From Gammaproteobacteria bacterium (GTDB lineage Bacteria; Pseudomonadota; Gammaproteobacteria; UBA1113): a stretch of 37,014 nucleotides of DNA. This document shows, in pieces, positions 9,596 to 9,726 of this stretch. The stretch covers positions 1 to 37,014 of the forward strand of contig JBIPMB010000001.1 of NCBI GenBank assembly GCA_044369355.1, in the 5' to 3' direction. The translations under genes were made by a program, and so were the position numbers. The notes below the pieces were generated by a model. It was not told the origin of the DNA. It worked only from the letters and a program-made list of their open reading frames with translations, and did not search any database. Every line of letters starts with the position of its first letter. The first letter of the stretch is position 1.

Positions 9596-9726
9596 TATAC
9601 TCTTCGCATTTGATTCTTAGGCTTTGTTGCCTTCGCCCATCTCGCGCCCAGTATATGACATAAGTACGTCACTCCTGGCGCTCGAGGACTAGTCTTCTCG
9701 CCTAAAAATCAACTGCTATGAGTAAG
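9596..9726. repeat. 131-bp MITE-like dispersed element, copy B (parA/parB junction)
   Basis: See copy A. It has the same orientation relative to the flanking genes. Confidence 0.85.

Follow-up and report, generated by a model that had tools for sequence, protein, structure and literature searches.

Insertions of a probably ERIC-related palindromic repeat into the last codons of parA and trmD in a gammaproteobacterial lineage

Protein C-termini encoded by MITEs (small non-autonomous palindromic transposons) are already documented, so that the phenomenon as such is known. ERIC elements have a 7-bp terminal inverted repeat, are associated with a target duplication and carry TA at their termini (PMC2229807, PMC3184786). 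Delihas described ERIC/RU-1 elements that are fused to the 3' ends of genes past the conserved domains, yielding protein tails that start with YTRHTSS (PMC2759123), and in Yersinia an orientation-dependent, RNase E-linked effect of ERIC on the upstream mRNA has been reported (PMC2229807, PMC3184786, PMC10969869). Correia elements are cleaved by RNase III (PMC2229807, PMC10969869), and other repeats known to change protein ends include the QMITEs of Coxiella and the RPEs of Rickettsia (PMC5896051, PMC10969869).

The window analysed here (the whole stretch of 37,014 nt) holds two full-length copies of a 131-nt repeat. The initial annotation had described the sequence at 9596–9726 as the second copy of a 131-bp element, and the alignment of both copies bears this out: it forms a direct repeat with 5383–5513 at 89% identity, and the claimed ~15 differences between the copies are found for the most part in the non-coding interior. 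Copy A (5383–5513) lies between trmD and rplS and copy B (9596–9726) between parA and parB, both on the minus strand and in the same, gene-sense ('S') orientation. A 24-mer from the centre of the repeat occurs exactly twice in the window, vs. 0.00 occurrences expected from shuffled sequences. The family consensus (see below) covers 9596–9724 of copy B, which reads TATACTC...GAGTA on the plus strand; the remaining positions, 9725–9726, are the first two bases of a Leu codon and, like 5512–5513 in copy A, read AG on the plus strand, outside the consensus, which has TA there, as do the canonical copies. The third copy is a fragment on the plus strand (24308–24333), whose 26 nt exactly match the family's conserved end (CCTAAGAATCAAATGCGAAGAGTATA); it abuts the stop codon of a minus-strand ORF (24335–24616).

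The parA gene (9709–10512, minus strand) encodes a protein that ends with ...VIENKLTHSS-stop, and its last six codons (L-T-H-S-S-stop, 9709–9726, minus strand) take T-H-S-S-stop from the terminal inverted repeat of copy B. ParA orthologues that lack the element (the closest ones, 91–92% identical) end with ...NKPQTTTA-stop and ...HQPQTTTA-stop. Immediately 3' of the element, at 9578–9595 on the minus strand, lies CAA ACC ACA ACC ACA TAA (QTTTT-stop), the displaced original 3' end of parA, followed by the original ribosome-binding region of parB (GAGGTGTACC, 9568–9577, minus strand), which is intact after the insertion and directly precedes the parB ATG at 9567. This relic shows that the element sits inside the old parA reading frame, with the original end stranded downstream. 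The coordinates also agree with two further statements of the initial annotation. The element ends 28 nt before the true parB start codon, and the 35-codon N-terminal extension of the six-frame parB ORF (9568–9672, minus strand), which runs without a stop through the element's conserved arm, is indeed spurious: the ORF (8683–9672) has 329 aa, vs. 294 aa for the gene called in the source assembly, and the extension is absent from parB orthologues.

The trmD gene (5496–6236, minus strand) encodes a protein that ends with ...KILAELTHSS-stop. Its last six codons (5496–5513, minus strand) again read L-T-H-S-S-stop, with Leu being the host's own conserved residue, and the displaced original 3' end (AAG AAG TAA, KK-stop) is found just 3' of the element at 5374–5382 on the minus strand. 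In relatives, TrmD ends with ...AELIKE-stop, ...AELTKE-stop or ...AELMKK-stop. The initial annotation had proposed to locate by alignment where the homology of ParA and TrmD ends; homology to solved structures stops at residue 252 of 267 in ParA and at residue 242 of 246 in TrmD (at ...AEL), with the tail lying beyond in both cases, and only the non-conserved tails of the two proteins have been replaced. The insertions were tolerated because the lost residues lie outside the conserved fold of either protein and because the ribosome-binding site and start codon downstream have stayed intact.

Comparison with relatives shows that both sites have also been preserved in the empty state. The parA-parB site is filled, with identical junctions, in L047 and L050, and empty in the syntenic contigs L058 and L059. 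The trmD-rplS site is empty in L047 and L050, where the flanks are 93–97% identical to the window and TrmD ends with ...AELIKE-stop or ...AELTKE-stop, and it is empty in L058 and L059 as well. At infC-rpmI, a third locus, L004 and L048 have the element and L025 lacks it. The empty sites and the displaced original ends together demonstrate real insertions within the last codons of parA and trmD. Since L047 and L050 are filled at parA-parB but empty at trmD-rplS, the two insertions differ in age: the parA insertion is old and common to at least three lineages, dating from before the separation of the host from at least two other species-level lineages, and the trmD insertion is recent, being missing from these close relatives. 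One copy accordingly entered the last few codons of parA in the common ancestor, and another copy entered the last codons of trmD much later. We hold with considerable confidence that the repeat is an ERIC/IRU/RU-1-like MITE, that it has inserted within the final codons of parA as well as trmD, and that the tail shared by the two proteins is a by-product of these insertions.

The 131-bp repeat has the properties of a MITE and is one. A profile search of all fetched sequence (the window, metagenome contigs and ~7 related gammaproteobacterial MAGs) identified 52 full-length copies. Exact-pattern scans returned 52 loci in species-representative genomes, nearly all of them from ~7 uncultured gammaproteobacterial MAGs, and the metagenome scan with exact patterns added just two copies; a few matches in Cytophagaceae, in which only ~26 nt were matched, appear to be chance matches. 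The family consensus is 127 nt long, with the terminal inverted repeats TATACTC at the 5' end and GAGTATA at the 3' end, arms that are base-paired over the greater part of their extent, and, in most copies, TA on either side. The copies range from 124 to 133 nt, well within the size of a MITE (below ~400 bp), have stops in the sense frames and lack the capacity to encode a transposase; the 52 copies are dispersed over unrelated loci, some of which are filled in one relative and empty in another. Both window copies are of a 131-nt variant whose central loop departs from that of the canonical 127-nt form. Relatives also contain a shorter subfamily of ~62-nt derivatives that consist of the ends only, with the interior deleted (L004 8235–8296, L018 6026–6088, L022 7026–7151, where they are in tandem, L025 1252–1308, L033 1051–1114 and L055 2733–2794). 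An identity with REP/REPIN elements, which are short GTAG-headed palindromes that are mobilised by RAYT and have neither terminal inverted repeats nor a target duplication, can be ruled out, the element having terminal inverted repeats and TA flanks and lacking a GTAG head. No Rfam 15 covariance model reached its gathering score anywhere in the window, and between 9540 and 9780 none matched even at E ≤ 1. When a 37-aa peptide encoded by the element was compared to 1.84 billion protein representatives, 11 weak matches were obtained, of which 10 were long or repetitive proteins with several matched stretches and one, a 76-aa ORF, is plausibly derived from the element; given this small number of weak matches, gene callers translate the element only rarely, and a protein search offers no census of the family.

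We infer the mobility of the family solely from the filled and empty sites, because no transposase with matching ends was found. A search for an autonomous partner, in which the element ends would be spaced beyond MITE length, found none in 57 loci, with ~8 kb covered around each copy, and returned only full copies, ~62-nt derivatives and truncated solo ends. The IS630-family transposase of the window (3183–4211) was considered as a partner and rejected, its flanks having no similarity to the termini of the element. At the gene-distal junctions, comparison with the empty sites gives what is expected for a TA duplication. The gene-proximal junctions are 1 nt short at parA and 5 nt short at trmD and have 3 extra nt at the infC copy, such that three of the four filled/empty comparisons (parA, trmD and infC-rpmI) depart from a clean TA duplication at this side; the fourth, at Cmk (L018), fits a TA duplication if both flanks mutated afterwards. 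The window copies and the parA orthologues read CT-TACTC, and the canonical copies TA-TACTC, and across copies the outermost flank base varies ~3 times more often than the next base. Three alternative definitions of the mobile event were tried, namely, a unit TACTC..GAGTA with TA duplication, a unit CTC..GAG that duplicates TA within a target resembling TATATA, and a duplication-free insertion between T and A. Each of them repairs one filled/empty case and breaks another, so that none fits all comparisons without an extra event.

The strongest lead left is that, within essential operons, the element is extremely conserved and strand-asymmetric. Typically, a copy touches or overlaps the stop codon of the upstream gene at one end and leaves 0–30 nt at the other end up to the ribosome-binding site of the next gene. 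With gene contexts assigned by a crude ORF rule (at least 100 aa), and after removal of orthologous duplicates, 21 copies in tandem-gene contexts are in the sense orientation vs. 7 in the antisense orientation (two-sided binomial p ~0.013, subject to the crude ORF calls); about one third of all copies are in antisense, convergent or divergent contexts. The window copies fold as a long hairpin, with −51 to −55 kcal/mol on the sense strand (z −6.3 to −7.5) vs. −38 to −40 kcal/mol on the other strand, and the corresponding values for the consensus are −67.4 and −50.3 kcal/mol. In the hairpin, 96.3% of the cells are paired, the non-Watson-Crick cells on the sense strand comprise 178 G.U vs. 16 A.C, and there is a clear compensatory change at one pair. 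In 48 copies that come from several species, the 50-nt arm adjoining the downstream gene is near-invariant. Between L047 and L050, the orthologous parA copies show a single difference in 123 positions, whereas the four-fold degenerate sites of the flanking parA and parB genes differ at 23–25%.

Taken together, the orientation bias, the sense-strand hairpin and the slow divergence of the parA copy suggest a role at the RNA level like that reported for ERIC. The element would be co-transcribed within the parA-parB and trmD-rplS operons, and its strong sense-strand hairpin could affect the processing or stability of the mRNA, as has been reported for ERIC in Yersinia; such an effect would account for both the orientation bias and the unusually slow divergence. 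Carried further, this leads to the reading that the element is a host-domesticated, operon-internal RNA hairpin that is kept by purifying selection and sets the expression of the upstream and downstream cistrons, with the rewriting of C-termini as its price. We regard this reading as possible but unlikely. It draws on the near-invariance of the parA copy relative to four-fold sites and of the downstream-side arm, on the orientation bias and the position of the copies shortly before ribosome-binding sites, on the G.U pairs that make the hairpin stronger on the sense strand, and on the orientation-dependent effect of ERIC on mRNA stability that is on record (PMC2229807, PMC10969869). The same low divergence, however, could stem from gene conversion instead of selection, given that conversion among dozens of copies can hold an orthologous copy at the consensus. 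Orthologous copies with near-identical arms and a different central loop (131-nt vs. 127-nt type) occur in three groups, i.e., the window copy at 9596–9726 vs. L047 2155–2281 and L050 6676–6802, L004 vs. L048, and L054 vs. L009. These switches of loop type suggest gene conversion between copies and make it a serious alternative to selection. The copies in antisense, convergent or divergent contexts also weigh against domestication, as do the scans for sigma-70 promoters and for intrinsic terminators, which found no promoter-like and no terminator-like site inside either window copy. A more far-reaching version, which we consider still more speculative and rather doubtful, is that the ERIC superfamily reaches far past the enteric bacteria and vibrios into a deep-branching Dot/Icm lineage and has there become a conserved, orientation-specific RNA module in essential operons (parAB, trmD-rplS and infC-rpmI) under purifying selection, with the parA copy diverging ~30-fold more slowly than synonymous sites.

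The repeat is read here as a MITE that reached the two loci by separate insertions. The two window copies both carry the 131-nt loop type and, ahead of TACTC, a non-canonical CT, as might be expected if they arose by local duplication or recombination of one copy with its flank and not by two independent transpositions. This origin is very improbable, however: identity between the copies is no more than 89%, even though the trmD insertion postdates the split from relatives with flanks that are up to 97% identical; no flank beyond 2 nt is shared between them; the parA copy is old and found in other lineages too; and the copies at dozens of unrelated loci show that members of the family disperse independently.

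Both tails are encoded by CTT ACT CAY AGC AGT TGA, with CAC vs. CAT as the sole difference. The initial annotation had taken the LTHSS ends of ParA and TrmD to be encoded by the same 18 nucleotides of the element; the tails are identical and the CAT/CAC difference is synonymous, as claimed, but Leu is not wholly encoded by the element. Because the first two bases of the Leu codon are off-consensus, and because Leu in TrmD is an ancestral host residue, the portion that the element itself encodes is T-H-S-S-stop and not the whole pentapeptide. Read in the three sense frames, the end of the element gives TAT ACT CAY AGC AGT TGA (Y-T-H-S-S-stop), ATA CTC AYA GCA GTT GAT TTT TAG (I-L-I/T-A-V-D-F-stop) and TAC TCA TAG (Y-S-stop), respectively. 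In the gene-sense orientation, a stop codon is thus located 8–35 nt from the element end in all three frames, and any gene that reads into the element acquires a very short tail.

A census of genes that have 100 codons or more and extend into a copy shows all of these outcomes. The THSS-stop tail is found in TrmD, ParA, Cmk (L018), RimP (L044) and GreA (L007), the ILTAVD.. tail (ILTAVDF-stop) in GlpD (L013) and SufD (L041), and the YS-stop tail in NagZ (L052), and translation stops at the junction in SecD, an OmpA/IcmN-like lipoprotein and FumC. The THSS frame is therefore used in 5 of ~8 independent gene overlaps that enter from that side, and the excess of this frame (5:2:1) is not significant by itself. 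The initial annotation had argued for a preferred insertion site or frame, an argument that would weaken if other copies were randomly placed relative to genes. With the census extended to the 52 copies, the placement relative to genes proves to be non-random, the copies being found at or next to gene ends and mostly in one orientation, but a preference for the frame does not follow from the 5:2:1 ratio.

For three of the five proteins, the recurrence of the THSS frame has a simple source, because a TA-flanked element gives (Y)THSS when its target is the TA of a stop codon (TAA or TAG). At Cmk, where the homologous site in L055 reads AAA TAA and has a different repeat instead of the MITE, insertion into the TA of the stop codon is shown directly. 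RimP, which ends with ...GYTHSS, and GreA, which ends with ...LYIHSS, directly adjoin a full-length match to the family profile and fit the same route. There is, then, a mechanistic and survivorship reason for the THSS frame to recur, which does not directly explain TrmD and ParA, where the insertion is a few codons short of the old stop. The two proteins share a tail because one element end is read in one frame in both; the tail is a by-product, with no sign of selection on it. Selection on the tail had been raised in the initial annotation; the THSS peptide itself might then be, e.g., a stability, localisation or secretion tag that would keep the element at gene ends. Although THSS-stop ends five unrelated housekeeping proteins in the clade and three lineages have the same ParA tail, its codons differing by one synonymous AGT-to-AGC change, we give this explanation hardly any credence, in that GlpD, SufD and NagZ have unrelated tails from other frames and several genes stop exactly at the junction, intergenic copies conserve the 18 tail-coding nucleotides just as well, the CAT/CAC difference is polymorphic throughout the family, Leu in TrmD derives from the host, relatives with flanks up to 97% identical lack the TrmD tail, the proteins concerned are housekeeping enzymes of the cytosol, and the excess of the frame is simply explained by insertion into the TA of the stop codon.

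The host belongs to a gammaproteobacterial MAG lineage, relatives of which carry IcmW and IcmN-like genes. The MITE family inhabits a small clade of uncultured gammaproteobacteria with Dot/Icm genes. The window encodes a 1156-aa ankyrin-repeat protein (14312–17782), and close relatives (L059 365–811; L014) encode IcmW and an IcmN/DotK-like lipoprotein; judging from these genes, the evidence points to a host-associated lineage with a Dot/Icm-type secretion system. The window also contains other repeats. The IS630-family (DDE_3) transposase ORF (3183–4211) is flanked by 153-nt inverted arms (2949–3101 and 4248–4400) that are 84% complementary, and the arm recurs alone in L031 at ~80% identity; it looks like another palindromic repeat family, the ends of which are unrelated to those of the ERIC-like element. 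REP-like palindromes with GTAGGGGC...GCCCCTAC heads (22529–22619, ~24178–24203 and ~24263–24290) represent a third repeat type in the genome and are reminiscent of the GTAG REP core in Coxiella QMITE2. Between parB and rpsP, a 470-aa orphan ORF (7079–8491), which matches no Pfam family above threshold and has counterparts of 444 and 530 aa in the relatives L058 and L059, marks an unusual junction at which the gidAB-parAB cluster directly adjoins the rpsP-rimM-trmD-rplS operon. A further ORF (23562–24161) includes five tandem 24-nt repeats (23949–24100) that encode AKKAAPAK, and its product is lysine/alanine-rich, histone-like and without a Pfam match. Finally, two paralogous genes (27744–28976 and 30141–31367) show ~75% nucleotide identity and lie 2.4 kb apart, the first being an MFS transporter according to Pfam.

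The family is likely to be a distant relative of ERIC/IRU/RU-1 on the strength of its size, its 7-nt termini and its sequence similarity, but common descent is not proven, because the similarity is weak and the profile of the 52 copies misses E. coli ERIC at default thresholds. Global alignment of our consensus with the published consensus of E. coli/Salmonella RU-1 (PMC2759123) gives 80–81 identities in ~130 columns (~62%), with z = 6.8 and none of 500 dinucleotide shuffles as good. Each half alone scores z 3.8–5.3 against the RU-1 consensus, and two other palindromic repeats from the window, used as negative controls, score z ~0–1. A profile built from 3 ERIC sequences matches 30 of the 52 copies vs. 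3 of 260 shuffled decoys, and its best matches (best E 0.0014) are mostly collinear and span most of the element. The E. coli ERIC copy (L060, fetched via the ERIC-PCR primer region), which has 127 nt between TATACTC and GAGTATA, is the one that went undetected in the converse search with the 52-copy profile at default thresholds; with that search negative, the relationship rests on the global alignment statistics and the reverse mini-profile.

For annotation, these results imply that proteins of this clade that end with THSS, ILTAVDF or YS have repeat-derived ends and not conserved motifs, and that ORFs that start inside the element, e.g., the 329-aa 'ParB', are likewise repeat-derived at their ends. 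The locus is a clean worked example, with empty sites and displaced original ends both present, of how a TA-flanked repeat with stops in every frame is tolerated in the last codons of essential genes. If the relationship to ERIC holds, it widens the known range of that family and provides a second, very divergent set of copies, whose near-invariant 50-nt arm and sense-strand bias hint at the location of a possible function. If the reading as part of an ERIC superfamily is true, comparison with this distant branch could show which parts of ERIC are functional and help to find the ERIC transposase.

Among the known systems, QMITE1 and QMITE2 of Coxiella burnetii resemble the present family in being MITEs, here from an intracellular gammaproteobacterium, and frequently extend a few to ~50 bp into the 3' ends of functional genes (PMC5896051). 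By description, QMITE1 differs in its length of 300–400 bp and its direct repeats of 2–3 nt (2–4 bp by MUSTv2 prediction), and QMITE2 in its length of 150–190 bp, 7–11-nt direct repeats and GTAG REP core, and both are without TATACTC termini. Rickettsia palindromic elements are palindromes of ~100–150 bp that are incorporated into protein-coding genes of an intracellular bacterium (PMC10969869). Unlike the present MITE, which sits at gene ends and terminates translation within a few codons, RPEs lie in frame inside genes and are translated through. We know of no terminal inverted repeat sequence that RUP or Correia/NEMIS elements have in common with this MITE, from which they are set apart by description. 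RUP, which is mobilised by IS630-Spn1, and Correia/NEMIS do share with it a TA target or flank, terminal inverted repeats, a hairpin RNA and co-transcription with neighbouring genes, the last being presumed for this MITE (PMC2229807, PMC10969869). They differ in that no partner transposase was found here, the IS630-family gene of the window having unrelated ends, and in that no IHF site or promoter consensus was found in the present element.

ERIC is the closest match. It, too, is an imperfect palindrome, of ~127 bp, that folds into a long hairpin, and the consensus of the present family is likewise 127 nt long; the 7-nt termini TATACTC/GAGTATA are identical to those of Salmonella SeRU-1 and of the E. 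coli copy L060 (PMC2229807, PMC2759123), and both have TA flanks. Both are situated between co-transcribed genes, if the presumed co-transcription of this MITE is accepted. The hosts differ, ERIC having been described from Enterobacteriaceae and Vibrionaceae (PMC10969869) and the present family occurring in an uncultured Dot/Icm lineage, and this family is too diverged for routine profile detection and includes a 131-nt loop variant and a ~62-nt derivative. Both fuse to the 3' ends of genes, and the tails differ in length, with up to 42 residues for ERIC vs. 2–8 residues here, where all sense frames have early stops; the tail of ERIC, YTRHTSS... (PMC2759123), is recognisably similar to the (Y)THSS of this family.
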